Source: a virus
Lineage: Duplodnaviria; Heunggongvirae; Uroviricota; Caudoviricetes
Length of the DNA: 64,000 bases
Reading direction: 5' to 3' (one strand)
IMG/VR virus record: IMGVR_UViG_3300006919_000037
Shown here: piece by piece, positions 23,069 to 45,308 of the stretch
Layout: every line of letters begins with the position of its first letter
Position numbering within the stretch: the first letter of the stretch is position 1
The notes under the pieces: model-generated
Told to the model about the DNA's origin: nothing
Database searches by the model: none
What the model saw: the letters and a program-made list of their open reading frames with translations, nothing else
Program-made: the position numbers and the translations under genes

Positions 23069-23145
23069 TGGTGCCCGTGGTTGGACTTGAACCAACACTG
23101 AACAGGGTTTGAATCTGTTGCCTCTGCCAATTGGGCTACACGGGC
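23069..23145 (-). tRNA. tRNA, class I scaffold with Leu-type anticodon CAA (A-C mismatch closing the anticodon loop)
   Basis: hand-folded: 7-bp acceptor GCCCGTG/CACGGGC, D-arm, T-arm GTTGG-TTCAAGT-CCAAC, discriminator A, encoded CCA; paralog of 33541..33616 and 45233..45308. Confidence 0.7.
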
Positions 23146-23151
23146 ATTTCA

Positions 23152-23739
23152 CTATTTTATGCTCTTGCCAACTTCACCTAACAATGCTTTCGTATGCCAA
23201 GCACCACCAATTTCTCTCTGATATAGACGGCCTCTCAACTCAGGGTGCCGTTTATACTCTTCATCATCCTTTGGTGCTGGCCGGATAGGATCATCAAGTA
23301 TTTTTTGTGCATCCTTATATGACATGACAGTAGCATCAAATACGTCCGGACTGAGGTTTTTCTTAATAAAACCTAATGCTGCACCAGATTTTTCTGAATA
23401 TGATCTACCTTGCATCACATCATCTCTCATCATACGAGCCAAACTGACCTTGCCTGCTGGTGTGCCGTTGGTAGCTACTGCAACACTTTTACGGCCACCT
23501 TTATCCTTGTACATAATAACGGCTAGAATTTTGTTGTCTTTGACTTCAAATTTCCAGAAAGGAATATTTTTAATCATATCTTCACGACTTTTGAAGCCGT
23601 TGCCGTGTATACCACCAATCTTGGCATATGCCTTTTGTAACAGATCATAAATCTGATCGGCATATTCCTCTTTTCTCTTATCTTTGGCTATCAGATTAAC
23701 ATAACGTTCTGTTATAAGATGTTCTTTGAATGTTTTCAT
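23152..23739 (-). CDS. hypothetical protein
   Basis: 195-aa ORF. Confidence 0.4.
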   Translation of the reverse strand: MKTFKEHLITERYVNLIAKDKRKEEYADQIYDLLQKAYAKIGGIHGNGFKSREDMIKNIPFWKFEVKDNKILAVIMYKDKGGRKSVAVATNGTPAGKVSLARMMRDDVMQGRSYSEKSGAALGFIKKNLSPDVFDATVMSYKDAQKILDDPIRPAPKDDEEYKRHPELRGRLYQREIGGAWHTKALLGEVGKSIK

Positions 23740-24305
23740 AGCACTATCGTGTTCTCTATTTCTTTGATTTTATTGATTACTGCTTCAACATCATTAAAAC
23801 GGTGTGAACCACCTTCCAACACAACAACTTCACATGCATCCTTATATTTAGCAACTGCAAGACTGTAATCCAATTCCTCATCACCCTTCTCGACCATCAC
23901 ACAGCTTGGATACTCGACTGGTTTAGATAGTGCATCGGATAGCTGATCTTCCAACGGTTTCCACTTCATTGCTTTTTCATCCGTCCAACCGGGAACAAAC
24001 GTCTTGAACACAGGACGTTGCAATGTGATGCTAGGTTGTGTCGAAGGATTTAATGCAACAAAACTCAGTCCATGTCTACGACCCATAATAGTGGCAAGAG
24101 TACCACCCATACTTGTTCCAACGAGTATGGGTTCAACTTCATATGTATAGATATAATCCAGTATGAAAGTCTCTAAGGCTCTCATTACCTTATCGTATTC
24201 AACACCCAGAGTAGGGGTTGCTACATTGAAATGATCCTTCAATATGGCAACTTTCTTTGACTTTGGGCTGGAACCGAATCCATGTATGTAAATAATATCT
24301 GTCAT
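23736..24305 (-). CDS. alpha/beta-hydrolase esterase (YqiA/UPF0227-like)
   Basis: IYIHGFGSS and nucleophile elbow GTSMGG (G-x-S-x-G). Confidence 0.6.
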   Translation of the reverse strand: MTDIIYIHGFGSSPKSKKVAILKDHFNVATPTLGVEYDKVMRALETFILDYIYTYEVEPILVGTSMGGTLATIMGRRHGLSFVALNPSTQPSITLQRPVFKTFVPGWTDEKAMKWKPLEDQLSDALSKPVEYPSCVMVEKGDEELDYSLAVAKYKDACEVVVLEGGSHRFNDVEAVINKIKEIENTIVL

Positions 24306-24546
24306 CTACTCACCTGTATCACAAAAAATGGTTGGAGTCAAATGATTTTCACTCAACTCCAAACTGTGCATAATCATCCGTCAACAAGGGACTTAGGGCT
24401 TTCCATATATTATTACTCACATCTCTTGTTGCTTCATCACTCGTATCTCCAATCAATGTCTTGAGAGCCAGACACACAGTTGCAAGCTCATGTGGTTCGA
24501 AACACACCCACTCATTTTTCTTCAATAGCAACATCTCACATATCCT

Positions 24547-25065
24547 CTAGTAAGGCCCTTGAGGGGCCATTTCTTCTCTGATGGTAAAGACTACCGTCGA
24601 GTTGTCTTTGAACGTCACAGCAGCCCTACAGCCCGATACAGCACCCTTTGGTATAGAAAGTCTCTGTACAGTTTCATCAATACCCACATAAAAAAATTCT
24701 GTGAATGTATGCATGATGACTCCACCTTCTTCAAGAAACACACCCGGCACATATAGTGTCACATCACCATCTGGTTTACCTTCTGTGACCCTGTAAATTT
24801 TATTGTCTGTTCCCGGCTGGGTACGTTCACCAGCCTTGGCTTTTGGTTTCAATCTTTGATATTCTTCCTGCACCAGTCTGAAATTCTCAGAAGTTCCACC
24901 CTGATCCGGATGATGAACCTTACAAAGTCTCCTGTACTCTGTTTTCAATTCCGTCTTGGTGAAGTTTGATTGGAGATTCCATTTCATCTTCTTGTCATCC
25001 TTAACCAAGCACAAACCTCTGACTTCGATCCACTGAATATGGGGTCCTTGCTTGTGTGCAACCAT
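24547..25065 (-). CDS. J-domain (DnaJ-like) protein
   Basis: EYRRLCKVHHPDQGGTSENFRLVQEEYQRL contains the HPD tripeptide in J-domain context; true start may be an internal Met. Confidence 0.45.
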   Translation of the reverse strand: MVAHKQGPHIQWIEVRGLCLVKDDKKMKWNLQSNFTKTELKTEYRRLCKVHHPDQGGTSENFRLVQEEYQRLKPKAKAGERTQPGTDNKIYRVTEGKPDGDVTLYVPGVFLEEGGVIMHTFTEFFYVGIDETVQRLSIPKGAVSGCRAAVTFKDNSTVVFTIREEMAPQGPY

Positions 25066-25235
25066 TCCACAATAAACATATCAACATCCGGATCAAGCTG
25101 AACGATCCTTAAGGGTCCTATGCAATCATTGTGTGAAAAACACATAATAACCGTACAGACCACCGATAACAACCAAGAGTTGAAATGGTGTGAATGGTAT
25201 ATATTTTTTATAGAATTTCATCATATTATCCAGAA

Positions 25236-25309
25236 TGGCTCCCCCGGCTGGATTCGAACCAACATCTATAGAGTCAAAGGCTATTATCCTACCATTAGAC
25301 GACAAGGGA
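25236..25309 (-). tRNA. tRNA-Gln (anticodon UUG), C-T mismatch at loop-closing pair
   Basis: hand-folded cloverleaf, T-loop TTCGAAT, CCA encoded; close paralog of 25580..25653. Confidence 0.65.
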
Positions 25310-25576
25310 ATTGTTCAGTTCTTCCATTATATCAAACTCAACCATGTAATAATCAAGACCATAAACCTCACCAACCATATCAAGCTCTTTGTCTTCTGAC
25401 AATTCTTCAATCAGTGCAGCCCGATCTATCTCAGACGGTTTGGTGGAATATCCACAAATATGCATGACCTGTATTTGCTCATTGTTCAGTTTTCTCACAC
25501 ATACAAGTGCATGGAAAAAGCCACGGTCTTTCAGGCTGTGAAAACTCTCTGTTAGATAGTCCATAATCAATTCCAT
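25295..25576 (-). CDS. hypothetical acidic protein between the two tRNA-Gln genes
   Basis: 93-aa ORF; 3-prime end overlaps tRNA by 15 nt. Confidence 0.3.
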   Translation of the reverse strand: MELIMDYLTESFHSLKDRGFFHALVCVRKLNNEQIQVMHICGYSTKPSEIDRAALIEELSEDKELDMVGEVYGLDYYMVEFDIMEELNNSLVV

Positions 25577-25579
25577 GTT

Positions 25580-25653
25580 TGGATCACCCGATAGGATTCG
25601 AACCTATATCTTTTGATTCAGAGTCAAAGATGCTACCGTTGCACCACAGGTGA
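25580..25653 (-). tRNA. tRNA-Gln (anticodon CUG)
   Basis: clean cloverleaf: acceptor TCACCTG/CGGGTGA, anticodon stem TTTGA/TCAAA, loop CTCTGAA, T-arm ATAGG-TTCGAAT-CCTAT, CCA encoded. Confidence 0.8.
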
Positions 25654-25724
25654 ATAATATAATTGGTGCAATCTGTTTAGGACTGCACCAACATTATTTA
25701 GTGTCACCTCTAGGGTTTATCAAC

Positions 25725-26216
25725 CTATGCAACAACTTTCTCAGAAAACCGGGCTTCAAGGTCCAGCAACCGTTCACTCTTGGCTTCCGGCTCACCGGTC
25801 AGGATGTATGGCTTTTCCCAATTTCCCACATTTATGTAGGCATACCAACCCACATCAAAATAATCGGTCATGCTGTCTGAGTTGTCGTGGTTACCTTCCA
25901 TCATGGCTGCAAGCAGTTCTTCCATGAAGTTCAGGACCTCACCCGAATAGTTCTCATTGAGGTGGTAATGAACCCCCTGATGATAAGTATCGGGGTTGGT
26001 GATCCACCGGTTCCGGTGATGATCATCCCAAGAATGTCCCCGGTTAGCAAGGGTGTTCCGGTAGTTACCGATAACATCCAGATCACCGGACTTGATATTC
26101 ACATGCAAGACGGAATGATGTTCAATCCGAATTGAACCCTTCATGTTGTACTTCTTGAGTACGGCTTTGATATTGGGGGCAAGCTCTTTCTTTTTGTCTT
26201 GGCTAATATAGGCCAT
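25725..26216 (-). CDS. hypothetical protein (start trimmed to MAYISQ, downstream of promoter)
   Basis: ORF-track start (26252) lies inside the promoter element. Confidence 0.4.
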   Translation of the reverse strand: MAYISQDKKKELAPNIKAVLKKYNMKGSIRIEHHSVLHVNIKSGDLDVIGNYRNTLANRGHSWDDHHRNRWITNPDTYHQGVHYHLNENYSGEVLNFMEELLAAMMEGNHDNSDSMTDYFDVGWYAYINVGNWEKPYILTGEPEAKSERLLDLEARFSEKVVA

Positions 26217-26249
26217 GTCTGATTTCCTTTTCTCTGTTTTCTCTCTACA

Positions 26250-26290
26250 CATACATAATGCCAGAAGGGCTGACCGGAGTCAACCCTTTT
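26250..26290 (-). promoter_or_regulatory. sigma70-like early promoter with -35 TTGACT inside hairpin GGGTTGAC-uccg-GUCAGCCC
   Basis: minus strand gggTTGACTccggtcagcccttctggcATTATGtatg, 38 nt upstream of ATG 26216. Confidence 0.55.
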
Positions 26291-26291
26291 T

Positions 26292-26456
26292 TTACCGACT
26301 GTCGAAGGTAAAATAACGATTATATATGAACCGGGCTTCACGTTCAAATGCTTCCTGACTTGCTTCGGAGAAATCAAGGACCATCCTCTCGAAAACCTTA
26401 CGGGCAACCATTTCATTGACGTTGAGAATTTTTGCAATTTGCTTGATGTAGTACAT
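26292..26456 (-). CDS. small hypothetical protein (start trimmed to MYYIKQ)
   Basis: ORF-track start 26510 lies within the promoter. Confidence 0.3.
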   Translation of the reverse strand: MYYIKQIAKILNVNEMVARKVFERMVLDFSEASQEAFEREARFIYNRYFTFDSR

Positions 26457-26477
26457 GGAGTTCCTTTCTCTATACAC

Positions 26478-26516
26478 ATACATAATGCCAGAAGGGCTGA
26501 CCGGAGTCAACCCTTT
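26478..26516 (-). promoter_or_regulatory. sigma70-like early promoter, hairpin-embedded -35 (copy 2 of family a)
   Basis: near-identical to 26250-26290: cataatgccagaagggctgaccggagtcaaccc. Confidence 0.55.
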
Positions 26517-26520
26517 TCTT

Positions 26521-27201
26521 TCATGCTACCTTACGGGCATTTTGCTTTTCAGTGTATGAGACATGATCAGCATACCGTTCCCGGATGTTCTCTTCCATGT
26601 AGTCTGCATGGTCCTTGACCGTCTGCTCAACCGTGGAGTAATCGATTTCACTCTCCCAGTCCAGCTTGTCAACATTCCGACCCCACACCCAAGCTACGTC
26701 TGCATAGGTCTCGAAAGTCCGACCATTCTTTTCAATGGTCTTTTTCTCAGGAGAGAGGGCAATCCCGTACTTTGGTTCAGTTCTTGAGTTGTAGTACCCT
26801 GAACCGTAGGTCCCATCACCAATCCAGAAGACCACACCAATTGCACCCTTGGAAGTCCGACCCCGTGCAACCTCAACCCGGTCACCCTTCCGGATTTCCT
26901 TGGCAGAGGTTTCGATCTTCCACCGGACATCAGCAGTCTTGTCTTCCGTGATCTTGTTCCGGTAGATGGTGATTGCATCCTCATCCAGATCAGCAACACA
27001 GGCTTTATAGTCGTAGTCGGCATACTCAGAACCCATGTCCCAAGTCACCAACTGGACCTTGTTGATGTGTCCAGAGTCTGTTACAACTTCGGCAACCATT
27101 CCACTACCCCAAATGTCTGACATAATCTGAGGGGAATTACCATAAATGGTCACTACCCGACCAACGAACTCCAAAGTTCCGTCTTTTTTCACGAGAGCCA
27201 T
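26521..27201 (-). CDS. hypothetical protein
   Basis: 226-aa ORF with promoter 34-38 nt upstream. Confidence 0.45.
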   Translation of the reverse strand: MALVKKDGTLEFVGRVVTIYGNSPQIMSDIWGSGMVAEVVTDSGHINKVQLVTWDMGSEYADYDYKACVADLDEDAITIYRNKITEDKTADVRWKIETSAKEIRKGDRVEVARGRTSKGAIGVVFWIGDGTYGSGYYNSRTEPKYGIALSPEKKTIEKNGRTFETYADVAWVWGRNVDKLDWESEIDYSTVEQTVKDHADYMEENIRERYADHVSYTEKQNARKVA

Positions 27202-27234
27202 ATCAAATTTTCCTTTCTTTCTCAGTTCCTATGG

Positions 27235-27270
27235 CTAGATAATAGCACACAGGAGACTGGAGTCAAGGAC
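27235..27270 (-). promoter_or_regulatory. sigma70-like early promoter (TTGACT-N16-TATTAT)
   Basis: minus strand ccTTGACTccagtctcctgtgtgcTATTATctagcc. Confidence 0.55.
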
Positions 27271-27628
27271 TATTTTTGGCTTCTTGGAATGTCATCTCAT
27301 CTATCAGAGTTAATGAACCAGAGGTTTCGATCCATGCACGGGCACCACATTTCAACTGGGTCCCATCATATACCAACCTTGTGAAACCATCTATCTCAAT
27401 CTCACGGGCATACCTGACCTTGATATTGGATGGGGAGATGTGCTCCTTGATGGTGTACACTGGACGGTTTCCACCATCCTTGGCATTCTTGGCAATGTGT
27501 TGCCGGTTCACGTGGATGATGTATCTGTGTTTAATGGGTTTGGTGGGGTCTGCTGTTTTCTTGAACTTATCCCAATATGTTGTGTTACCATCGAAACTCA
27601 TTGGGTGCTCTGGTCTATTGTGAGACAT
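27263..27628 (-). CDS. hypothetical protein
   Basis: 121-aa ORF. Confidence 0.4.
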   Translation of the reverse strand: MSHNRPEHPMSFDGNTTYWDKFKKTADPTKPIKHRYIIHVNRQHIAKNAKDGGNRPVYTIKEHISPSNIKVRYAREIEIDGFTRLVYDGTQLKCGARAWIETSGSLTLIDEMTFQEAKNSP

Positions 27629-27648
27629 CTTTCAACTCCACTGTAAAA

Positions 27649-27804
27649 TCAAACTTCATAAGACAGTCTTTCATAATCAAGGACATAATCCGTGAGAACG
27701 GCTCTGGCAAGCTCTTCTGGTGAGACACCCTGATGTTTTGCAATCACCAACAGCTTGATGTATATATCCTGACCCAATGGTACTGGTAGGTCACTGTTAA
27801 TCAC
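27649..27804 (-). CDS. small ribbon-helix-helix-like protein (GTG start; below ORF-track size cut-off)
   Basis: manual translation VINSDLPVPLGQDIYIKLLVIAKHQGVSPEELARAVLTDYVLDYERLSYEV; beta-strand plus HQGVSPEELARAVL helix pattern typical of CopG/Arc-type RHH. Confidence 0.3.
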   Translation of the reverse strand: MINSDLPVPLGQDIYIKLLVIAKHQGVSPEELARAVLTDYVLDYERLSYEV

Positions 27805-27809
27805 CTTTT

Positions 27810-28055
27810 TCACAGCTTATACCCCTCACCAAGATATTCCTTCACCTTGTTTTCCTCAACGAACTCATTCCATTCTGATTCGGTTGTGAAAAACTCAAGT
27901 GTTTTGATGAAATAATAGACAAATTCACGGGACTCTGCATCATCTTCATCACTAAAATGACCAAGAAGAGATATGGATGATGTTATAGTTGACATGAGAT
28001 TATCACGTGTCACCTCATCGGCTTGGTCTGGTGTTAGGAAAACTTCAAATTTCAT
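27810..28055 (-). CDS. hypothetical acidic protein (start trimmed to MKFEVFLTP)
   Basis: ORF-track N-terminal extension to 28172 reads through two tRNA genes and is rejected. Confidence 0.35.
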   Translation of the reverse strand: MKFEVFLTPDQADEVTRDNLMSTITSSISLLGHFSDEDDAESREFVYYFIKTLEFFTTESEWNEFVEENKVKEYLGEGYKL

Positions 28056-28081
28056 TGATTTCACCTGATCATTATAATGAT

Positions 28082-28157
28082 TGGAGTTGCCGGTCGGAAT
28101 CGAACCGACATATCCCTGCTTTGCAGACAGGCCCGTAACCATTCCGGGCACGGCAAC
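28082..28157 (-). tRNA. tRNA-Cys (anticodon GCA)
   Basis: acceptor GTTGCCG/CGGCAAC, anticodon stem CCTGT/GCAGG, loop CTGCAAA, T-arm GTCGG-TTCGATT-CCGAC, CCA encoded. Confidence 0.75.
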
Positions 28158-28162
28158 GTTAT

Positions 28163-28239
28163 TGGTGATCACGGAAGGATTCGAACCCTCAACCTAAAAG
28201 GTAGAAGCTTTTTGCTCTGTCCAGTTGAGCTACGTGACC
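28163..28239 (-). tRNA. tRNA-Arg (anticodon UCU)
   Basis: perfect anticodon stem AAAAG/CTTTT, loop CTTCTAC, T-loop TTCGAAT, CCA encoded. Confidence 0.8.
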
Positions 28240-28416
28240 GTTATTGTTTTACCGTGGGCACACACAGAGGTGTGGACCACACTTATCCGTATGATAAGAA
28301 ACAGCAGAGAATGACCGAAACGTCCCATCCTTGGACTTGGTTGCATTCTTCTTGGCTTCCAGCTTCTGCTTCTTGGTCCGGTACGGCTTCATATTCTTCA
28401 TTGATACTTGTTCACC

Positions 28417-28440
28417 CATAACTCATACTTTCATGTTTGT
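28417..28440 (-). promoter_or_regulatory. conserved 24-nt motif ACAAACATGA(R)AGTATGAGTTATG between a tRNA 3-prime end and the next ATG (copy 1)
   Basis: identical except one base to 33518-33541; both abut a tRNA CCA end and finish at a start codon. Confidence 0.4.
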
Positions 28441-28514
28441 GGTGCCAGTGAGAGGAATCGAACCCCTAATCTTCACGTTACAAAGGTGTTGCCTTACCAT
28501 TCGGCCACACTGGC
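28440..28514 (-). tRNA. tRNA, probable anticodon UGU (Thr), with only a 3-bp anticodon stem core
   Basis: perfect 7-bp acceptor GCCAGTG/CACTGGC, T-arm, CCA; anticodon arm ACACC-TTTGTAA-CGTGA has A-A and C-C mismatches. Confidence 0.6.
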
Positions 28515-28559
28515 ATTGTTTCTATTTATTTAGTGACACAACATATATACCACTATTGC

Positions 28560-28775
28560 TTATGTGTCAAGCTTTTTTCGTGCTAATACGTAAATATCTG
28601 GTACAATGACAACCCAAAGAACACTGTAAATTATGGTCAGAATACTCATCACACCAGAAGTTTCACCCCAGATCACGGAAAACAGGATTGCAAGAAACCA
28701 ACCCAGCCCGAAACCAAGGTCCAGAACAAATTCCAGAAACATTTTTACCTGCTTATTCATCCTCATAATCTCCAT
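28560..28775 (-). CDS. small membrane protein
   Basis: 71 aa, two hydrophobic helices. Confidence 0.35.
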   Translation of the reverse strand: MEIMRMNKQVKMFLEFVLDLGFGLGWFLAILFSVIWGETSGVMSILTIIYSVLWVVIVPDIYVLARKKLDT

Positions 28776-29052
28776 CTATATTATCTTCATACCAGTTCTG
28801 GAGTGATTCTTTGATCTTTTTGGTATCCCAGTTGAGAATCTTACCAGTCTCCACATCAACCAAAAAAATCATATCATCACCATACTCAGACACACCACAG
28901 ATATCCGGTGCATACCCTGAATGATCAAAATTCTGCATTTGATCATTGAACTCAAACCCGACATCATGGCAATCACGTGAGTGTGTACCAATAGAAATTT
29001 TCACAAGTCCATCCATAATTTTACTCAAGGTATTCTCTCCATTCTTCTGCAA
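28753..29052 (-). CDS. hypothetical acidic protein
   Basis: 99-aa ORF. Confidence 0.35.
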   Translation of the reverse strand: MQKNGENTLSKIMDGLVKISIGTHSRDCHDVGFEFNDQMQNFDHSGYAPDICGVSEYGDDMIFLVDVETGKILNWDTKKIKESLQNWYEDNIDGDYEDE

Positions 29053-30661: not shown

Positions 30662-30668
30662 TCCTCAC

Positions 30669-33520: not shown

Positions 33521-33541
33521 AACTCATACTCTCATGTTTGT
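33518..33541 (-). promoter_or_regulatory. conserved 24-nt motif ACAAACATGA(R)AGTATGAGTTATG (copy 2)
   Basis: see 28417-28440. Confidence 0.4.
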
Positions 33542-33616
33542 GGTGTCCCTAGTCGGATTCGAACCGACACTGAACAGGGTTTAAAGCTGTGGCCTCTGCC
33601 ATTGGGCTATAGGGAC
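33541..33616 (-). tRNA. tRNA, class I scaffold with Leu-type anticodon UAA (C-C mismatch closing the loop)
   Basis: acceptor GTCCCTA/TAGGGAC, T-arm GTCGG-TTCGAAT-CCGAC, CCA; scaffold near-identical to 23069..23145. Confidence 0.7.
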
Positions 33617-33628: not shown

Positions 33629-34120
33629 TTACTTACGACCGTTACCGTTTCCACCACCGTTTCCAGAACCACCGTTACCGTTTCCGGCTCCGGCACCCTG
33701 TCCATTGTTTCCACCACCGTTTCCAGTACCGGGACCTGAACCACCGTTATTTCCACCACCGTTTCCAGAATTTCCGGCATTACCGTTTCCGTTACCGGGA
33801 CCTGAACCACCGGAATTACCGGAATTACCATTCCCACCGGAATTACCGTTTCCGTTACCGTTTCCGTTACCGTTTCCGTTACCATTCCCACCGGAATTAC
33901 CATTCCCACCGGAATTACCATTCCCACCGGAATTACCATTCCCACCGGAATTACCACCACCAAGATCGTAATTGGCTCCTGTTCTTGGATTACAATAACG
34001 ATCTTCTACAGATTGGCTGAGATTGCAATCAACACCATCACTGAAATTACCAGCAATAGCAGTCATTGAAAAAATTGATACAGATGTAGCAATAACGGAG
34101 CATAGCAAAATTTTCTTCAT
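33629..34120 (-). CDS. secreted glycine/asparagine-rich repeat protein
   Basis: signal peptide MKKILLCSVIATSVSIFSMTAIA, then GGNGNS and GNGN repeats, C-terminal Gly-rich. Confidence 0.5.
   Translation of the reverse strand: MKKILLCSVIATSVSIFSMTAIAGNFSDGVDCNLSQSVEDRYCNPRTGANYDLGGGNSGGNGNSGGNGNSGGNGNSGGNGNGNGNGNGNGNGNSGGNGNSGNSGGSGPGNGNGNAGNSGNGGGNNGGSGPGTGNGGGNNGQGAGAGNGNGGSGNGGGNGNGRK
33650..33960. repeat. tandem 18-bp (cattcccaccggaattac x4) and 12-bp (ccgtttccgtta x3) coding repeats
   Basis: visible perfect tandem units at 33840-33960 and degenerate copies upstream. Confidence 0.7.
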
Positions 34121-37305: not shown

Positions 37306-37395
37306 TGGTGGAAGACTGAGGTGTCGAACCCCACACCCTACAAAGGTGCCATCTGTTTTCAAGGCAGTGCCCGGAGCCGTCCGGATTAATCTTCC
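37306..37395 (-). tRNA. tRNA-Ser (anticodon UGA), type II, with weakened anticodon stem
   Basis: acceptor GGAAGAT/GTCTTCC, anticodon arm ACTGC-CTTGAAA-ACAGA (3-bp core), variable-arm hairpin CACC-TTTGTAG-GGTG, T-arm TGGGG-TTCGACA-CCTCA, CCA. Confidence 0.55.
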
Positions 37396-37414
37396 ATGTC
37401 TATATTTAGTGACT

Positions 37415-38011: not shown

Positions 38012-38182
38012 TATATGAACTCCATTCTATTTTCATTGGGCTTACCGGAAGCACACCACTCTGTCACATGACCGGAGCCATATTCAAACCGTTGCTTCCA
38101 AACACCCGGTTGCTTTTCCAAGAGGTGGATTTTGTATTTTCCACCCCTGAAACTCTTTGCTGGATAATACATCCAATCTGTC

Positions 38183-38672: not shown

Positions 38673-38826
38673 CAGTCATCTCCCGGATAATTCAGGATAC
38701 CGTATGTCTCATACATATCATCCAGATATGAACATGCAGCATCGGTTACTTCGTCTTTGGTGTGTCCATCTGGATTTCTGATCACCCAGATGGCATACCT
38801 TAACAATTCCTTGGCTGTGTTTTTCA

Positions 38827-39327
38827 TCAGGCTCCCATCGGCTGGGCAGTGAACTCAACCCCGGTCCAATCAACACCATCCATCAACTCACGTGAGAGGT
38901 ACTTCTTGACTTCAGAGCAGGCTTCATCAGCATTCCGACCCAGCATCTGTTCGTAGAAAGTTTTACCTTCGTGCTCGACCTTAACGTCGAACCAAGTAAA
39001 TTCCCTCTTTTTCCCGGCAACTGTCACACCCTTGACCATCCGGTCTTCATTGTTGAGCATACCTTCGTGGAAGGACCCCTCAGACCACTCAAACACTGCA
39101 TCACCGGCATCCGTACCAACTGTGACCAAACCGGTCATGTGACCTTCCTTGGCACGTTTATCGGCATAGTAGCACCCGGTCTTGTAGTACATTTTCGTGT
39201 TCTTCTTTTCAGAATCATCACTGTAGCTGTAGAAGAATGGTTTGTAAGCAGCTTTGGCAACATGGGCATAACGACCATCGGAGAGCAGGACTTTCTTACC
39301 AGTCACTTTGTACATATACATTCCCAT
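38827..39327 (-). CDS. hypothetical protein
   Basis: 166-aa ORF; ATG 39327 about 35 nt downstream of promoter. Confidence 0.45.
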   Translation of the reverse strand: MGMYMYKVTGKKVLLSDGRYAHVAKAAYKPFFYSYSDDSEKKNTKMYYKTGCYYADKRAKEGHMTGLVTVGTDAGDAVFEWSEGSFHEGMLNNEDRMVKGVTVAGKKREFTWFDVKVEHEGKTFYEQMLGRNADEACSEVKKYLSRELMDGVDWTGVEFTAQPMGA

Positions 39328-39359
39328 AACTCGTTTCCTTTCTCTGTTTTCTCTTTATG

Positions 39360-39397
39360 TCCTTATAATGCCAGAAGGGCTGACCGAAGTCAACCCC
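39360..39397 (-). promoter_or_regulatory. sigma70-like early promoter with hairpin-embedded -35 (family a)
   Basis: plus strand ccttataatgccagaagggctgaccgaagtcaacccc. Confidence 0.55.
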
Positions 39398-39529
39398 TTA
39401 TTTCATGTTGGAAAGAAATCTTTCAGACCTTCAAAAAAGAACTCCACATCCTTTTCAATGGTTTTATCATCCCACTCACCCATAGACTGTTCAGTGATCA
39501 GGGTTTTGAGACGTTCCTTCACGGCAATT

Positions 39530-39763
39530 TCAAGAATCTTCTGCATCACTATACCTTCTCTTATCTTGATATTTCACGAAAGCTTCAGCAGACTTGTAGC
39601 ACATTTCAGCACAAGCATTCAAAAGCTCTTGAAGCTCATCATCAGAAACGTCTGCAAGTCCAGTTCCCAGTGAAATGGCAGCAACATAAATGTCTTGGGC
39701 TATTTGATCAACTTTGCTCATATTCAAATTCCTTTCTATGGCCATGGGGACCGGAGTCCCCAC
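39530..39763 (-). CDS. small hypothetical acidic protein
   Basis: ORF-track start is a GTG inside the hairpin; an ATG at 39745 is an alternative start. Confidence 0.3.
   Translation of the reverse strand: MGTPVPMAIERNLNMSKVDQIAQDIYVAAISLGTGLADVSDDELQELLNACAEMCYKSAEAFVKYQDKRRYSDAEDS
39746..39761 (-). terminator. GGGGAC-cgga-GTCCCC stem-loop (copy 2)
   Basis: identical 23-nt element to 8351-8373, directly after stop of 39769..40230. Confidence 0.4.
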
Positions 39764-39768
39764 ACTTG

Positions 39769-40230
39769 TTAGTCCATCCGGCTGGATGCATATGCTTGCT
39801 TCACAACCCCGGCTTCGTCAACAACCTTGGCAAAGGCATATGCATAAGCTTCCTTCTTCTGCATGGACTGATTGAACTCACTCACCCAGATCGTGACACC
39901 ACCGTAGTAACTGTCTGAACGGGCAAGACCCTTCTTCTTCAACCAGTTGGCAAACTTGGAGTTACCGGGCTTGATGTTCACCCATGCAAACCCACACACC
40001 CCATCAGCAACATAGTAGACCGGCTTGGTCTGATCGATCTTGGAGTCGAAGACCCCAGCATGACCAACCACCATCGGACGGACATCCAGTTTGCTCACGG
40101 CTTCCCGACCGGCTGTATCAGCAGCTTCAAAAATGTTTTCAAACTCTTTCATAGCAATTCCTTTCTCAAAGGGTTGATTTAATAGTGTGGCAGAGGCTTT
40201 CTTGTAACCTTGTTCAAACTGAGTGACCAC
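39769..40230 (-). CDS. hypothetical protein
   Basis: 153-aa ORF; probable true start MKEFENIF at 40152. Confidence 0.4.
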   Translation of the reverse strand: MVTQFEQGYKKASATLLNQPFEKGIAMKEFENIFEAADTAGREAVSKLDVRPMVVGHAGVFDSKIDQTKPVYYVADGVCGFAWVNIKPGNSKFANWLKKKGLARSDSYYGGVTIWVSEFNQSMQKKEAYAYAFAKVVDEAGVVKQAYASSRMD

Positions 40231-40388
40231 TCATAGAACGACCGGATACGTCCCCCAAATTCCTTGGAGTCAACAGAAACCCTACGAGTCTCTTCGTTGA
40301 TCTTGGTTACAATACCATAACCAGACCTTTTGTAGTAACCATTCTCATACACGGTCACCCGAATTTTTTCTCCAACTTCGAACTTCAT
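40179..40388 (-). CDS. small hypothetical protein
   Basis: 69 aa; ATG 24 nt downstream of promoter -10. Confidence 0.4.
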   Translation of the reverse strand: MKFEVGEKIRVTVYENGYYKRSGYGIVTKINEETRRVSVDSKEFGGRIRSFYEWSLSLNKVTRKPLPHY

Positions 40389-40407
40389 GTCTTTCCTCTC
40401 TCTCTAT

Positions 40408-40443
40408 GTCTACATAATAGCAGATCATGGGTGAGAGTCAACT
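40408..40443 (-). promoter_or_regulatory. sigma70-like early promoter (TTGACT-N16-TATTAT, family b)
   Basis: minus strand gTTGACTctcacccatgatctgcTATTATgtagac. Confidence 0.55.
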
Positions 40444-40451
40444 CCTTATTT

Positions 40452-40727
40452 TCAATTTTGGGCAAAACCCAGATACCGGACCCGTGTCCCATCTGTGTTC
40501 ACGAAATCTGGATTGTTACCATCCCAGTGAATACCCGGTAGGTCAATCTCACTCAGTTCTTCCTGAACCAGATACCGGAACCCACCATAATTACCAGTGG
40601 ACCGAAGAACATCTTCCAACATCCCCATCAGGGCTTGACGAGCATCCTGTGATCCACCTTTGGCAGCACAGAACCCATTGACATAACTAACCAGCTTCTC
40701 AACTTCATAAGTCTTACGTGGCATCAA
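40452..40727 (-). CDS. hypothetical protein
   Basis: 91-aa ORF. Confidence 0.35.
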   Translation of the reverse strand: MMPRKTYEVEKLVSYVNGFCAAKGGSQDARQALMGMLEDVLRSTGNYGGFRYLVQEELSEIDLPGIHWDGNNPDFVNTDGTRVRYLGFAQN

Positions 40728-40741
40728 AAATCCTTTCTCTC

Positions 40742-40963
40742 TTAGAGGTTACATCCGGAAACCGGGTAGATGACCCCATGTTTCGTCACCCATGCTGAGT
40801 GGTCCACAAGAACCCTGTCACCGTAATTCTGCTGGAGCTTGTGACCGGCATCCGTCAACATGGTAACAAGCTGTTCCATATTATCAATGAAAATACCCTT
40901 CTGTGCAGCAAACCGGGTTGTGTGGGTTGCTACGGCAATGTTGATCAGTGTTGTGATGTTCAT
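40742..40963 (-). CDS. small hypothetical protein (start trimmed to MNITTLIN)
   Basis: ORF-track start 41017 lies within the promoter; ATG 40963 is preceded by AGGAAAAAAAC. Confidence 0.35.
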   Translation of the reverse strand: MNITTLINIAVATHTTRFAAQKGIFIDNMEQLVTMLTDAGHKLQQNYGDRVLVDHSAWVTKHGVIYPVSGCNL

Positions 40964-40985
40964 GTTTTTTTCCTTCTCTCTATAT

Positions 40986-41021
40986 CTACATAATAGCAGA
41001 TCATGGGTGAGAGTCAACAGG
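40986..41021 (-). promoter_or_regulatory. sigma70-like early promoter (family b, near-identical to 40408-40443)
   Basis: plus strand ctacataatagcagatcatgggtgagagtcaac. Confidence 0.55.
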
Positions 41022-41026
41022 TATTT

Positions 41027-41263
41027 TTACAACCCCTCAATTGTCAGGAACCGTTCACCCTTGGCAGCATCCAGACCAGAGACCAGTTCAATATCACCAT
41101 CATCCTTCTCAACCTGAATCTGAAGATCAATACCGTACATGGTCCGGACATTTGTAACTGTACCGGTAAACCACTCACCCCCAATAGTCTGTCCGGTAAT
41201 CTTTTTACCAGCAGCTTTACTCCAAAGTTTATTCATGAAAGTCTTTACACCATAGTCATTCAT
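41027..41263 (-). CDS. small hypothetical protein
   Basis: 78-aa ORF. Confidence 0.35.
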   Translation of the reverse strand: MNDYGVKTFMNKLWSKAAGKKITGQTIGGEWFTGTVTNVRTMYGIDLQIQVEKDDGDIELVSGLDAAKGERFLTIEGL

Positions 41264-41293
41264 TTCTCGTTCCTTTTCTGCTTTTCTCTATAT

Positions 41294-41330
41294 CCACATA
41301 ATGCAAAAAGGGCTGACCGAAGTCAACCCC
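41294..41330 (-). promoter_or_regulatory. sigma70-like early promoter with hairpin-embedded -35 (family a)
   Basis: plus strand cacataatgcaaaaagggctgaccgaagtcaacccc. Confidence 0.55.
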
Positions 41331-41335
41331 TAATT

Positions 41336-42241
41336 TTAGAAAATCTTAGTTTCGTAAGTCTGCTCTTTCCGGATGGAGAGCTTGTACCGGATATCCTCTT
41401 CAAGGATCAACCGTGCACCACTGATGGTATCCTGATTTTCAATGAATTCACCATCCCGTGAGTATACACTGTAACCGGTCCTGTGTGTCCGGATATGACC
41501 GGCATGGATCACTGAACCATCTTTCATATTCAGGTAATACCGGGCAAGAGCACCACGTCTGTTGACTGTCCACTTTGACTTCCGGACCTTCACCTCTTCA
41601 AGGGCAGGCATCTGGAATGATTCGTGTCCGTTGACGAACTCTTCACGGAGAATTGCATAGATCGTCTGGAAGGCAATTCCATGACCCTTAATGGTTTTCT
41701 TACCAACCTTCGGATTATGGTTTTTGATATGCTCTTCGGGGACCCAGTTGAAATTCTCAGTGAATGAGTTTTCGGAAACACCCTTTTTGTACCACTCACC
41801 CCATGGCACGATCCCGTGCTCAACCATGTGGGCAACCTCATGTGCTAGGGTTCCCATCAGGTCCTTGGTCCAGTGACCATTGAAGTGACCGATTACCGGA
41901 TCAGTTCTGATGTGCTCATATTCCGTGAAAAAGGTTTCCACATACTCACCGGTATCAAACTCTTTCTTCATGTTCCTCAAGAACTGGTTCAGGTTCATCC
42001 GAATCCAGAGATGCTTTCCCTTGGTTTTGGAAAAGTGGACACCGGCACGTGAAGGTGACCGGCTATATCCCTTGGGATAGGACTCAACAAGGTGGTAGGT
42101 GATCTTCTCACCATCATCACTACGATAGACCGGCAGAAAACCACCAGCACCCATCTTGTCATTCATGAATTGCAGCATATTGTCAATCTGTTCATTACAG
42201 AAGATTGACAATGCTTTCTTGAATTTCTTGTCGTTTTGCAT
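41336..42241 (-). CDS. putative zinc metallopeptidase (HExxH)
   Basis: LAHEVAHMVEH motif in a 301-aa protein; family unassigned. Confidence 0.45.
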   Translation of the reverse strand: MQNDKKFKKALSIFCNEQIDNMLQFMNDKMGAGGFLPVYRSDDGEKITYHLVESYPKGYSRSPSRAGVHFSKTKGKHLWIRMNLNQFLRNMKKEFDTGEYVETFFTEYEHIRTDPVIGHFNGHWTKDLMGTLAHEVAHMVEHGIVPWGEWYKKGVSENSFTENFNWVPEEHIKNHNPKVGKKTIKGHGIAFQTIYAILREEFVNGHESFQMPALEEVKVRKSKWTVNRRGALARYYLNMKDGSVIHAGHIRTHRTGYSVYSRDGEFIENQDTISGARLILEEDIRYKLSIRKEQTYETKIF

Positions 42242-42262
42242 GACTTTCCTTTCTCTCTATGT

Positions 42263-42298
42263 CTACATAATAGCATAGAGAGAATCTGTGTCAACCAG
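42263..42298 (-). promoter_or_regulatory. sigma70-like early promoter (TTGACA-N16-TATTAT)
   Basis: minus strand gGTTGACAcagattctctctatgcTATTATgtagac. Confidence 0.55.
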
Positions 42299-42881
42299 TT
42301 TTTATTCTGTCTGGATTAAAAATCTTGTTTGGTAAGGGTACATTCAACAACCGTTCCAATTCTATGATATCAGAATCCTTACCGAATTTCCAAATAGGCC
42401 AGTTGTATTTTTCGTGCAATTTCAGAATTTCGATCTGACCACGGGCTGCATGTTTTTCAGCATCCCTCACATAATGGAAATGTGGAGCATTCTTTATGGA
42501 TTCGGCATTCTCTCGTGGCTCCCTGAATACCAGCAGGGGTTCAATCTTAATGCCAAGAGGATTCGGACCAAACATCTCAGGCATCCATATTGGTGGACCC
42601 GGCATTTTTTGGACGGCTTTATCAAACCCACGTTCAAGAGCCTCTAGTTTGTGATCCAATGCCCATTGGCCAACCACTACCATATCATCCTCATCCAGAG
42701 CTTTTGATGGGAGACCCCAAAGACCCTGACAGTATGATAATGGCAGTGGTGACTGATAGGACCCCCGTGGACCCGTATCCCTGTTATAGAACCCATTGTG
42801 TGTGAGAGTCCCGGCAACACAGCTAGTACCACCGGACGGCATCCCAACAACCACAATGAGTCTGCATGGTGGATCAATCAT
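42291..42881 (-). CDS. sulfotransferase-like protein
   Basis: N-terminal VVVGMPSGGTSCVAG resembles the PAPS 5-prime-phosphosulfate-binding loop (G-x-P-[KR]-[SA]-GTT); FREPRE resembles the 3-prime-phosphate-binding RDP motif. Confidence 0.4.
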   Translation of the reverse strand: MIDPPCRLIVVVGMPSGGTSCVAGTLTHNGFYNRDTGPRGSYQSPLPLSYCQGLWGLPSKALDEDDMVVVGQWALDHKLEALERGFDKAVQKMPGPPIWMPEMFGPNPLGIKIEPLLVFREPRENAESIKNAPHFHYVRDAEKHAARGQIEILKLHEKYNWPIWKFGKDSDIIELERLLNVPLPNKIFNPDRIKTG

Positions 42882-43135
42882 CTCTCAACAAGACGGATAT
42901 ATTTTGGGGTTTTCCGGTTATGTGACCGGTAGGATTTCATTGGAACCCACTCGTTCAGAGGTTGGATCAGACCATCATTCTTGGCTAGGCTGATCATCGT
43001 ACCCCAGTTGTTTGGGTGATCTGCATCACCAACAAGGGCTTTGATCAAAAACCGTAGGTCCTCACCAGTGAATTCCACCGGCAAGTTCAATTCAGGAATG
43101 ATTTTGAGGGATTTCTTCAACCACTTCTTGTCCAT
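42878..43135 (-). CDS. hypothetical protein
   Basis: 85-aa ORF. Confidence 0.35.
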   Translation of the reverse strand: MDKKWLKKSLKIIPELNLPVEFTGEDLRFLIKALVGDADHPNNWGTMISLAKNDGLIQPLNEWVPMKSYRSHNRKTPKYIRLVER

Positions 43136-43340
43136 AATCTTTCACCTTTTCATAATACACGTTTTCAGCTTCAATAAGATTTTTGACATCAGATTGAAGA
43201 TTGAAGTTTTCAAGAGCTATCTTCTTGAGATAGGTTGCACGACCCATAATATCTGGATTTGGAACATAAGTCAACCGACGAATTCTATCATGTATACGTT
43301 TTATGATATTTTCTTTGATGTCCCAGTAACTGACGGGCAT
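43092..43340 (-). CDS. hypothetical protein
   Basis: 82-aa ORF. Confidence 0.35.
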   Translation of the reverse strand: MPVSYWDIKENIIKRIHDRIRRLTYVPNPDIMGRATYLKKIALENFNLQSDVKNLIEAENVYYEKVKDYGQEVVEEIPQNHS

Positions 43341-43368
43341 TTGAATATCTCACATGTTCATAATAAAT

Positions 43369-43443
43369 TGGTACAAGCAACAGGGTTTGAACCTGTGATA
43401 TCAGTTCCACAAACTGATGTGTTACCCACTACACTATGCTTGC
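43369..43443 (-). tRNA. tRNA-His (anticodon GUG)
   Basis: anticodon stem TCAGT/ACTGA, loop TTGTGGA, D-stem GTGT/ACAC, T-arm ACAGG-TTCAAAC-CCTGT, CCA; base -1 (T) can pair with discriminator A. Confidence 0.75.
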
Positions 43444-43449
43444 ATGAAT

Positions 43450-43524
43450 TGGCTGGACTGATAGGATTCGAACCTACATATAACAAGTTAACAGCTTGCT
43501 CTCTTACCAGTTGAGTACAGTCCA
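43450..43524 (-). tRNA. tRNA-Asn (anticodon GUU)
   Basis: acceptor TGGACTG/CAGTCCA, anticodon stem GCAAG/CTTGT, loop CTGTTAA, T-loop TTCGAAT, CCA. Confidence 0.75.
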
Positions 43525-43539
43525 ATAATTCTTCTACAT

Positions 43540-43767
43540 CTATTTAGTCTTTTTTGTACACTTCAACGAGATTCTGATAACCCCGTAATTCTCTTTCAGA
43601 TATTCTTTGTGCTCACGATACAAGGCACGGGCTTTACGTCTTTCGAGTCTACACTCCTGATACGAGTTAAAAACCACTGGTGTAAGCTTTGGGTGAATTT
43701 TCTCACCCCTTACCCAACCTGAATTTGATACCAGCACGATTGCCGATAGAACGAATATGTTAAGCAT
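43540..43767 (-). CDS. small secreted basic protein
   Basis: signal peptide MLNIFVLSAIVLVSNSGWVRG. Confidence 0.4.
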   Translation of the reverse strand: MLNIFVLSAIVLVSNSGWVRGEKIHPKLTPVVFNSYQECRLERRKARALYREHKEYLKENYGVIRISLKCTKKTK

Positions 43768-43816
43768 CTTGTAATCCCGTATATAGGTTTAATGTGAGTG
43801 AGTGTCAAGCACTAAA

Positions 43817-44092
43817 TCACTGCAAATTATCCCGAAACATATCCGAAATCAGTCTTGAATTCTTCTCCAACAGGTCCACAACTTCCTGTTTCAATGCATT
43901 AACCCGTTTATTCAGTTCAGTATCATCAATATCAGTATTGGATTTCCACTCAGCAATTTGCTGCAAGGCCACGTCCTTGTCATCACACCTCTCCATCATC
44001 TGTTTCACAACCATACTGGAGAACAAATCCACGAGAGTCTGTTCAATAATATCATCCAACTGTTCTATAAGCACTTCGTTATCCATTACCAT
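43817..44092 (-). CDS. hypothetical acidic protein (start trimmed to avoid tRNA overlap)
   Basis: ORF-track start 44158 reads through tRNA-Thr. Confidence 0.35.
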   Translation of the reverse strand: MVMDNEVLIEQLDDIIEQTLVDLFSSMVVKQMMERCDDKDVALQQIAEWKSNTDIDDTELNKRVNALKQEVVDLLEKNSRLISDMFRDNLQ

Positions 44093-44105
44093 TTTTCCTT
44101 TTTTC

Positions 44106-44179
44106 ATGGTGCCGACACAGGGAATTGAACCCAGATTTCTGCAATACCACAGCAGCACTCTACCATTGAGCTATATCGG
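44106..44179 (-). tRNA. tRNA-Thr (anticodon GGU), U-U mismatch closing the anticodon loop
   Basis: acceptor GCCGATA/TGTCGGC, anticodon arm CTGCT-GTGGTAT-TGCAG, CCA encoded. Confidence 0.65.
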
Positions 44180-44294
44180 CCTAATTAAATTAGACGGGCC
44201 TCTCTCTGTCTTTCCTGTATGATCACTATTACACAGAGGGTTGCACTTTGTTCGAATTTGCCATGCAACTAGCCCCTCAAGACCCATCTAAACT

Positions 44295-44369
44295 TGGTAT
44301 CCCCAAGGGGATTTGAACCCCTGTCACCGGCTTGAGAAGCCGACATCCTGACCACTAGACGATGGGGAC
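44295..44369 (-). tRNA. tRNA-Glu (anticodon CUC)
   Basis: anticodon stem TCGGC/GCCGG, loop TTCTCAA, T-arm AGGGG-TTCAAAT-CCCCT, CCA. Confidence 0.7.
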
Positions 44370-44375
44370 AGAATT

Positions 44376-44464
44376 TGGTGGGAACTGGACGGAATCGAAC
44401 CTCTTGCCTTAAGGAACCGGTTTACAGCCGGTCAGTGGACCATCCACTCTTACTTGCAGTTCCC
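44376..44464 (-). tRNA. tRNA-Tyr-like (anticodon GUA), type II, possibly degenerate (T-stem does not pair)
   Basis: acceptor GGGAACT/AGTTCCC, perfect anticodon arm ACCGG-CTGTAAA-CCGGT, variable hairpin CCTTAAGG, T-loop TTCGATT but no complementary T-stem; CCA. Confidence 0.45.
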
Positions 44465-44848
44465 AATGTTGTATTTTTCATATTTCTTACCAACAACAAT
44501 ACTGCTTTTAACATTTGGTTTTGGTAAGAAATACATCGTTCCTTCTTCAGTTAAAACGAATAAATCATCATATTGTACAAGATCAGCAGTTTTATGTACA
44601 TAGTTTTTTTTACTATTTCCACCTAAAACTCTTAAACCAACTTCATAACCACCGGTTGATTTTCTCTGACTTGTTGTTTTTATAGACACTCTTCTCAACC
44701 CCCTATCAGGATCATCTACAACCAAGTCATAATCTTGACTATCTGTTAATGGTATGGAAACAGCCCAACCAAGTCTACTGAAATATGATATTGCATAACC
44801 CAGACCAACATCACCTTGTTTTTTTGTGTTTACACTACTTTCAAACAT
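44450..44848 (-). CDS. putative PD-(D/E)XK-type nuclease (Hjc/VRR-NUC-like)
   Basis: N-terminal GDVGLGYAISYFSRLGWAVSIPLTDSQDYDLVVDD pattern typical of restriction-endonuclease-fold proteins; embedded in tRNA cluster. Confidence 0.35.
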   Translation of the reverse strand: MFESSVNTKKQGDVGLGYAISYFSRLGWAVSIPLTDSQDYDLVVDDPDRGLRRVSIKTTSQRKSTGGYEVGLRVLGGNSKKNYVHKTADLVQYDDLFVLTEEGTMYFLPKPNVKSSIVVGKKYEKYNIGNCK

Positions 44849-45062
44849 ATTTAACCCTAACTGTCTGTTATACAGTTATTTAGGGAACTTTACCTTTCCA
44901 GTGACTTGAGCAAGACCTTTCTTGGCTTCTTCTGGAAATTCTTTCCATAAAGCTTGAAGCTCAGAAGCATAAGGCACTGTGCCATGAAATCCAGAAGTAA
45001 AACTATCTTCTATGATAGCTAATTTTTTTTCATATTCTGTTTTCATAATATATCCTATAAAT

Positions 45063-45140
45063 TGGTACTACCGACCGGATTCGAACCGGCATTCCCCTGC
45101 TTGAAAGGCAAGTATCCTATTCCAGTTAGACGACAGTAGC
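45063..45140 (-). tRNA. tRNA-Glu (anticodon UUC)
   Basis: anticodon stem CTTGC/GCAGG, loop CTTTCAA, T-arm GCCGG-TTCGAAT-CCGGT, CCA. Confidence 0.7.
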
Positions 45141-45232
45141 ATAATTTGGTCAACACCAACTCAGTTAAAACAGATCAACCCTCTAGGGATATCTTTCAGT
45201 AATACCGGTTAACTAGATGCAAACCAAATAAT

Positions 45233-45308
45233 TGGTGCTCGTGGAGAGAGTCGAACTCACACTGACTGGTTCCTAAAACCAGTGCCTCTGCCATTGGGCT
45301 ACACGAGC
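45233..45308 (-). tRNA. tRNA, class I scaffold with Leu-type anticodon UAG
   Basis: perfect 7-bp acceptor GCTCGTG/CACGAGC, clean 6-bp anticodon stem ACTGGT/ACCAGT, loop TTTAGGA, short variable region, CCA; paralog of 23069..23145 and 33541..33616. Confidence 0.7.

Follow-up and report, generated by a model that had tools for sequence, protein, structure and literature searches.

Three tRNA genes that carry leucine anticodons and lack the long variable arm of canonical type II tRNA-Leu lie in a tailed phage genome (Caudoviricetes; IMG/VR record IMGVR_UViG_3300006919_000037), of which we analyzed a stretch of 64,000 nucleotides, hereafter the window. The question they raise is whether such short tRNAs are working leucine isoacceptors, tRNAs of another identity, or degraded copies. 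Judging from their sequences, the three genes quite probably encode functional type I leucine tRNAs and belong to a conserved family shared by phages and mostly Actinomycetota chromosomes. Given that a type I tRNA-Leu of Streptomyces coelicolor was leucylated in vitro, we read them, by analogy, as putative working isoacceptors that the host's leucyl-tRNA synthetase (LeuRS) would charge.

Structure of the three tRNA genes

ARAGORN placed tRNA-Leu(CAA) at 23069–23145 (77 nt), tRNA-Leu(UAA) at 33541–33616 (76 nt), and tRNA-Leu(UAG) at 45233–45308 (76 nt), lengths that include the encoded CCA. These positions match exactly those of a preliminary description made from the sequence alone, which had left the strand, minus in all three cases, unstated. 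The Rfam tRNA model (RF00005) recovered the same genes with 54.4 bits (CAA), 51.9 bits (UAA), and 56.4 bits (UAG) against a gathering score of 29. Other anticodons or poor covariance scores had been named beforehand as outcomes that would speak against the description; the covariance models kept all three anticodons, and no gene had the sub-threshold score or the lost invariant positions of a pseudogene. ARAGORN's total for the window was 13 tRNA genes, which all lie between 23 and 45 kb on the minus strand and have an encoded 3′ CCA; their Rfam scores span 52–68 bits.

The cloverleaf parse gave the three leucine tRNAs a common architecture, consisting of a 7-bp acceptor stem, U8 and A9, a D-arm of the form GCCC/AAU(U)GGCAG/AGGC in which C13·A22 closes three base pairs, an anticodon loop of 7 nt, the variable loop UCAGU, a normal T-arm, and A73 followed by the encoded CCA, with the conserved and invariant tertiary positions intact. 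The D-loop of the CAA tRNA has 9 nt (AAUUGGCAG). The variable region, earlier put at 4–5 nt, has 5 nt in each gene, and at 76–77 nt none of the three contains the long variable stem-loop (>10 nt) of canonical type II tRNAs. Besides the family-typical C13·A22, each gene has one unusual stem mismatch. The pair that closes the anticodon loop is mismatched in two of the three, as had been noticed, with A31·C39 in the CAA tRNA and C31·C39 in the UAA tRNA, while the UAG tRNA has a fully paired anticodon stem and a U50·U64 mismatch in the T-stem. Complementary to UUG, UUA, and CUA, respectively, the anticodons CAA, UAA, and UAG are not those of suppressor or recoding tRNAs.

Two further observations concern the same tRNA cluster. 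The tRNA-Thr(UGU) gene at 28440–28514 has two non-standard anticodon-stem pairs, 27·43 and 31·39. A candidate for a hidden type II tRNA at 37309–37395 (87 nt; 16 bits with the family model R1 introduced below) was dropped; Rfam returned nothing there at E ≤ 1.

A family shared by phages and bacterial chromosomes

The 18-nt D-arm string TAGCCCAATGGCAGAGGC, which served as our search motif, has exact matches in at least 120 IMG/VR viral contigs and in at least 120 bacterial genomes, the latter mostly Actinomycetota by record title. Among the viral matches listed, ARAGORN placed the string in 111 tRNAs, 109 of which have a leucine anticodon (UAA 60, UAG 20, CAA 17, GAG 5, CAG 5, and AAG 2) and a length of 73–76 nt. 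The other two viral tRNAs with the string (contigs L057, 813–886, and L064, 1773–1849) combine the anticodon GUU with U1-A72 and G73, an Asn-type acceptor end; a tRNA's identity thus does not follow from its D-arm by itself. Among the bacterial matches listed, all 119 motif tRNAs are short tRNA-Leu (UAA 95, UAG 18, CAA 3, CAG 2, and AAG 1). The preliminary description took every other bacterial tRNA-Leu to be type II, a premise that these matches show to be wrong. Given that an 18-nt string recurs in hundreds of independent tRNA genes, chance is excluded as an explanation of the likeness.

The bacterial copies are almost always the sole tRNA of their 8-kb locus and many have the acceptor stem GCCCCCG, which points to a vertically inherited chromosomal gene. 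These chromosomal type I tRNA-Leu genes (mostly UAA), found by record title in Microbacterium, Arthrobacter, Nonomuraea, Nocardioides, Ilumatobacteraceae, and others, agree with the window tRNAs in the D-arm 18-mer, which is identical, and have A15:U48, A73, and a variable loop of the form NNAGU. Unlike the window tRNAs, they come as one isoacceptor per locus rather than as a trio, and their 31·39 pair is intact in 117 of 119 copies. On the viral side, a BLAST search with the UAA tRNA retrieved 353 GenBank phages, including phages of Escherichia, Salmonella, Streptomyces, Erwinia, Mycobacterium, Shigella, and Rhodococcus, and the matching site was usually annotated as tRNA-Leu. Short tRNA-Leu genes outnumber long ones by 146 to 9 in the motif-selected viral loci, a ratio that is biased because these loci were picked by the motif. 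Both architectures can coexist in one phage, since contig L241 holds a type II tRNA-Leu(UAG) at 3587–3671 (85 nt) and a type I tRNA-Leu(CAA) at 4088–4164 (77 nt). One viral tRNA on the type I scaffold (L036, from IMGVR_UViG_3300014885_000114; 4445–4551, minus strand; 75.7 bits with R1) has a 34-nt insertion in its anticodon loop, which could be a short intervening sequence or the mark of a disrupted gene.

The full trio of UAA, CAA, and UAG tRNAs recurs in Salmonella phage Felix O1 (AF320576) and in three sampled viral loci. In Felix O1, the three genes are annotated as tRNA-Leu (for CUA, UUG, and UUA), they are short as well (78–79 nt with CCA), and the CAA and UAA tRNAs have the same D-loop AAUUGGCAG, C13·A22, A73, and encoded CCA. 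Differences from the window tRNAs are a sequence identity of only ~77%, variable loops that appear to have 6–7 nt, and a divergent D-arm in the UAG tRNA. The phages themselves are unrelated, Felix O1-like phages (Ounavirinae, e.g., Shigella phage Sf14) on one side and the T4-like phage of the window on the other. Given this annotated trio and the chromosomal occurrence of the scaffold in bacterial genomes, the three genes are not unique. The family is widely annotated and scarcely described, and the window tRNAs are ordinary members of it that pipelines already call tRNA-Leu. In the literature, we did not find the phage type I tRNA-Leu family described, the only related texts being the S. coelicolor study and a single sentence on a mycobacterial tRNA cluster that mentions a tRNA-Leu(UAG) whose variable loop is short, and in the literature devoted to phage tRNAs we found no mention of the variable region or of a missing arm.

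Covariation supports the common fold. The family covariance model R1 was built from 28 members, with the three window tRNAs among the seed. It gave 84.4 bits for the CAA, 85.8 bits for the UAA, and 88.5 bits for the UAG tRNA, scores that are high partly by construction because these tRNAs were in the seed, and 50 bits for the best other tRNA of the window. Over 123 distinct aligned sequences, 99% of the cells in paired columns were standard pairs and changes on both sides were seen at 20 of 20 pairs, and the covariation score was 0.95 versus 0.21 for shuffled alignments and at most 0.17 with the pairing partners slid. Good support thus exists for a cloverleaf whose anticodon loop has 7 nt and whose variable loop has 5 nt, and the family register shows A26 together with these two loops. 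For the CAA tRNA, a 7-nt loop closed by A31·C39 is what the covariance models and the register of the family give; its minimum free energy (MFE) fold instead has 9 nt in the loop and a shifted stem of 5 bp. The 1:72 position is a G·U wobble in 58 of the 123 aligned sequences and G1-C72 in the window trio.

Relationships among the three tRNAs and their mismatches

The almost identical scaffold initially attributed to the three tRNAs holds for the D-arm, the variable loop, and G49, and breaks down in the acceptor stem. This stem is alike in the CAA tRNA (GCCCGUG) and the UAG tRNA (GCUCGUG), which differ only by a compensatory change of C3-G70 to U3-A70, whereas the UAA tRNA has GUCCCUA. The anticodon stem ACAG/CUGU and the variable loop are common to the CAA and UAA tRNAs, which are each other's joint-closest relatives with 76% identity over variable positions; this fits a duplication plus a switch between C34 and U34. 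The nearest relative of the UAG tRNA is the UAG tRNA of viral contig L053 (84% over variable positions), and the view of the three genes as paralogues thus holds only in part.

A 31·39 mismatch is rare in the family, with 12 of 138 viral and 2 of 119 bacterial copies among the matches listed. An A·C or C·C mismatch at this position is also seen in L003, L010, and L029, independent members whose anticodon stems are related, and the C13·A22 pair is a family trait and no defect. A syntenic type I tRNA-Leu(UAA) lies upstream of a Metallophos gene in the related phage L244 (9475–9551), where A31-U39 is intact. In a search of IMG/VR for the exact anticodon-arm strings, the arm of the CAA and UAA tRNAs was found in only two unrelated contigs and that of the UAG tRNA in none.

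Leucine identity

We surveyed 741 phage tRNAs for a leucine signature made of A73, A14A15, A15:U48, and N13·A22, whose D-arm part is partly selected by the search motif. It was present in 8 of 8 type II and 95% of type I tRNA-Leu and in at most 6% of any non-leucine isotype. Two of its elements lie at positions outside the motif and were nearly universal in the viral members, with A73 in 138 of 138 and A15:U48 in 134 of 138. The identical D-loop AAUGGCAG also occurs in some type II tRNA-Leu. Like canonical type II tRNA-Leu of E. coli and phage T4, the window tRNAs have A73, A14-A15, A15:U48, a 3-bp D-stem with N13·A22, the D-loop AAU(U)GGYAG, the T-loop, and leucine anticodons; unlike these, they have 5 nt in place of the 13–17-nt variable stem-loop, C rather than G at position 13, and A rather than G at position 9. 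In sequence terms, the type I scaffold has the appearance of a type II tRNA-Leu in which the variable stem-loop has shrunk to NNAGU and U48 has been kept.

Bacterial LeuRS reads A73 and the tertiary core, and neither the anticodon nor the variable stem-loop (PMC6614811, PMC2377443). An element-by-element comparison, proposed in the preliminary description, found all its recognition elements, including A73 and the D-arm features, in the three sequences, namely A73, U8:A14, A15:U48, and G18G19 with U55C56. In this family, one body carries six leucine anticodons and almost no others, over two codon boxes that have only the amino acid in common, as would be expected if leucine identity were set by the body rather than by the anticodon. 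Consistent with this assignment, the tRNAscan-SE isotype models score leucine highest for the Leu_TAG/CAA/TAA trio of Shigella phage Sf14 (PMC12482277).

The codons themselves gave the same answer. In alignments of 26 protein pairs with the related phage L244, UUG codons aligned with leucine in 57% of cases (n = 49), and UUA and CUA in 50% each, with small counts for these two (n = 6 and n = 8, respectively). In the same comparison, CUG, CUU, and CUC aligned with leucine in 47–66% of cases, while isoleucine or valine codons did so in 6%. Alignments of helicase and phosphoesterase homologues had a leucine consensus in 7 of 10 UUG columns. There was no sign of recoding at UUG, UUA, or CUA, and these codons mean leucine. 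With a family whose anticodons are leucine only, a leucine identity signature, and codons that align with leucine, the reading of the three genes as leucine isoacceptors, one of those offered initially, is supported.

Charging and decoding

The closest biochemical precedent is the type I tRNA-Leu(CAA) of S. coelicolor, which was leucylated in vitro by its own LeuRS and also by human mitochondrial LeuRS (Fan 2019, PMC6614811). This tRNA needs U8:A14 as well as a variable loop that is no shorter than 5 nt and includes nucleotide 48 (PMC6614811), and the window tRNAs likewise have a short variable loop, with U8, A14, 5 nt, and U48. Unlike them, the S. coelicolor tRNA is chromosomal, and the likeness was drawn from the elements described for it rather than from the GCCC/AAUGGCAG/AGGC scaffold. 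With Aquifex LeuRS, removal of the variable arm of Aquifex tRNA-Leu mainly lowers affinity, while deletion of U48 abolishes charging (Yao et al. 2008, PMC2377443). Short variable loops and leucine identity are also combined in the type I tRNA-Leu of animal mitochondria, the scaffold of which is unrelated and degenerate. S. coelicolor LeuRS was unable to charge human mitochondrial tRNA-Leu(UUR) (PMC6614811), which indicates that the mitochondrial recognition set differs.

Each leucine tRNA gene starts 6–45 nt past the stop codon of a same-strand upstream open reading frame (ORF); the 5′ end of the CAA tRNA lies 6 nt past the stop of ORF 23152–23739, and that of the UAA tRNA 12 nt past the stop of ORF 33629–34120. 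We found no strong promoter-like site directly upstream of the CAA and UAA genes in the region scanned, which covers these two. The simplest reading is that each tRNA would be transcribed together with its upstream minus-strand ORF, then excised by host RNase P and 3′ processing, with the CCA already encoded. Host LeuRS would presumably leucylate the products via A73 and the tertiary core, by analogy with the charging systems above. In decoding, the CAA tRNA would read UUG, the UAA tRNA UUA and UUG, and the UAG tRNA CUA plus other CUN codons, and if the usual U34 modifications were made, the trio could form a self-sufficient leucine set covering all six codons. Our ORF scans of the window found no aminoacyl-tRNA synthetase near the tRNAs.

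The phage genome and its lack of GCG and CGC

The phage is a distant T4-like myovirus, given that it encodes a gp41-type helicase, a gp43 DNA polymerase, UvsX, the gp44 clamp loader, the gp45 clamp, and dCMP deaminase. The helicase has 45–48% identity to cyanomyovirus proteins, and the polymerase, split into two ORFs, is ~40% identical. The two gp43-type ORFs (14612–15712 and 15709–17262, minus strand; 366 and 517 aa) overlap by 4 nt and correspond to the two halves, N- and C-terminal, of a single PHROG profile. Assemblies from JGI, Logan, and ENA contain the same sequence in the form of a ~162-kb contig. A megablast search of window positions 22–34 kb against GenBank phages gave no match, i.e., no near-identical relative, and the nearest related phage, L244, has a phosphoesterase ~61% identical in protein. 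Farther along the minus strand, at 46955–59175, a run of sugar-metabolism genes encodes a nucleotide-sugar epimerase, UDP-glucose dehydrogenase, an FkbM methyltransferase, a HAD-family protein, a phosphoesterase, and glycosyltransferases of the GT1/GT4, GT10 (fucosyltransferase), and GT2 families; it could have a role in the modification of DNA or surface glycans.

Codon usage did not agree with the suggestion that the tRNAs are matched to AT-rich codons. The window has a GC content of 41–45%, and the leucine codons of its ORFs are CUG (29%), CUU (23%), UUG (23%), CUC (10%), CUA (8%), and UUA (6%). As UUA and CUA are the rarest leucine codons, the tRNAs are not tuned to an AT-rich bias. Leucine makes up a normal 7.1% of the residues in the window ORFs.

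A separate feature of this genome is the lack of two trinucleotides. The 64,000-base window contains not a single GCG or CGC; dinucleotide frequencies predict ~270 GCG and ~200 CGC, ~470 in all, and CGG, CCG, ACG, and TCG each occur ~390–630 times. Both are also absent from a further 10 kb of the same genome to the left of the window (L247, 10403–20402), which extends the void to at least 74 kb. The Logan assembly is 100% identical over a shared 7.4 kb and the ENA assembly over 10.4 kb, and neither contains GCG or CGC; with three independent assemblies in agreement, a base-calling artefact was ruled out, and the void is a genuine evolutionary purge. The nearest related phage shows a 5–10-fold depletion of the two trinucleotides that falls short of emptying, and none of ~240 other loci came close to a comparable void. 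Amino-acid composition is normal despite the purge. Its effect can be followed in tRNA-Cys, where the acceptor stem GUCGCCG/CGGCGAC of the relative corresponds to GUUGCCG/CGGCAAC in the window; this compensatory change of C3-G70 to U3-A70 removes one CGC and one GCG and keeps the pair.

We also considered the ban on GCG and CGC as the cause of the type I scaffold and of its mismatches, and discarded it on both counts. Type II D-stems can be GUGG/ACAC, free of GCG, and many phages of normal GCG content have type I leucine tRNAs. A31·C39 and U50·U64 could be repaired without making GCG or CGC, and in the UAA tRNA only a repair to C31-G39 would create CGC, while G31-C39 would not. We found nothing on GCG avoidance in the literature and no candidate enzyme for the void among the ORFs scanned. 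The void implies a selective agent with 3-bp specificity; it is more remarkable than the tRNAs and may matter more.

Alternative explanations

Several observations weigh against functional leucine isoacceptors. Energy-only folding recovered a cloverleaf for the CAA tRNA only, and this one shifted, with z-scores of just −1.7 to −2.6. Such failure is common for tRNAs, and we regard it as weak evidence against robustness. Two of the three copies are unpaired at 31·39 and the third has the T-stem U·U, the D-arm part of the leucine signature is not independent of the search motif, and few UUA and CUA codons entered the alignments. Finally, the LeuRS enzymes of E. coli and Streptomyces purpurogeneiscleroticus failed to charge the S. 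coelicolor type I tRNA-Leu (PMC6614811), and for this reason charging by an arbitrary host LeuRS is not guaranteed; bacterial charging of arm-less tRNA-Leu is established in principle, not for every enzyme.

The mismatches could alternatively mark decay, in which case the genes would be pseudogenes or weak tRNAs kept by chance. This would account for A31·C39, C31·C39, and U50·U64, for MFE folds that miss the cloverleaf in two of the three, and for Rfam scores of 52–56 bits in the lower part of the range of the window tRNAs. Yet these scores are far above the gathering score, nothing is lost of the conserved tertiary positions, A73, or CCA, an A·C or C·C mismatch at 31·39 turns up again in independent members (L003, L010, and L029), and the syntenic orthologue has been retained in L244, a phage as distant as the ~61% identity of its phosphoesterase indicates. 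Moreover, the GCG purge hit tRNA-Cys through a compensatory change, which indicates that selection still acts on tRNA structure in this phage, and we consider decay improbable. Even harder to credit is another identity or altered decoding, whether by reassigned leucine codons or by frameshifting of the CAA tRNA through a 9-nt anticodon loop. The MFE fold of this tRNA does favor the 5-bp stem with such a loop, and the two viral GUU tRNAs with G73 show that the same D-arm can sit on an Asn body. However, the family alignment fixes the 7-nt register, G3:U70 and a long arm are missing while A73 and the full leucine signature are present, the family anticodons are restricted to leucine, UUG, UUA, and CUA align with leucine as the other leucine codons do, and the leucine content is normal. 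The further suggestions that the tRNAs have another identity or modulate decoding thus found no support in the signature or the codon alignments, and we judge the chance of either to be very small.

A different proposal, compatible with functional leucine tRNAs and supplying a reason for their architecture, is that the short arm is itself selected, allowing the tRNAs to escape host or phage-borne tRNA-targeting nucleases or toxins that recognize type II tRNA-Leu, and leucine decoding to go on after depletion of the host's tRNA-Leu. According to passages in the literature on phage tRNAs, such tRNAs can neutralize tRNA-cleaving defences and carry resistance changes in the anticodon loop. The short form dominates the viral loci, its family reaches phages of Escherichia and Salmonella, hosts not known to have one, the recurrent trio of Felix O1, the three sampled loci, and the window could cover six leucine codons, and the 31·39 mismatch is commoner in phage than in bacterial copies. 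On the other hand, the 146-to-9 ratio carries the bias of motif-based locus choice, no nuclease that reads the long variable arm of tRNA-Leu was found in the literature on phage tRNAs and tRNA-cleaving immunity, and the same architecture is that of a normal chromosomal tRNA in mostly Actinomycetota genomes, so that no defence rationale is needed. That phages of Escherichia, Salmonella, and possibly the host of the present phage carry a full arm-less leucine set with an adaptive short arm therefore seems unlikely to us, if conceivable. If true, such a set would be invisible to readers of the type II elbow or variable arm, whether these are defence nucleases, toxins, or a host-shutoff RNase of the phage itself, and it would still be charged by LeuRS, contrary to the single result with E. 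coli LeuRS on a Streptomyces tRNA. The variable and anticodon stem-loops of E. coli tRNA-Leu are said to be dispensable for charging.

Implications

For the window itself, our results are mainly corrective: the three genes are probably functional type I leucine tRNAs of an already annotated kind. At the family level they pose a modest question. One conserved arm-less scaffold is common to hundreds of phages of unrelated hosts and to mostly actinobacterial chromosomes, and the sole biochemical study, in which E. coli LeuRS failed to charge the tRNA, describes type I tRNA-Leu as a rare form found in Streptomyces.

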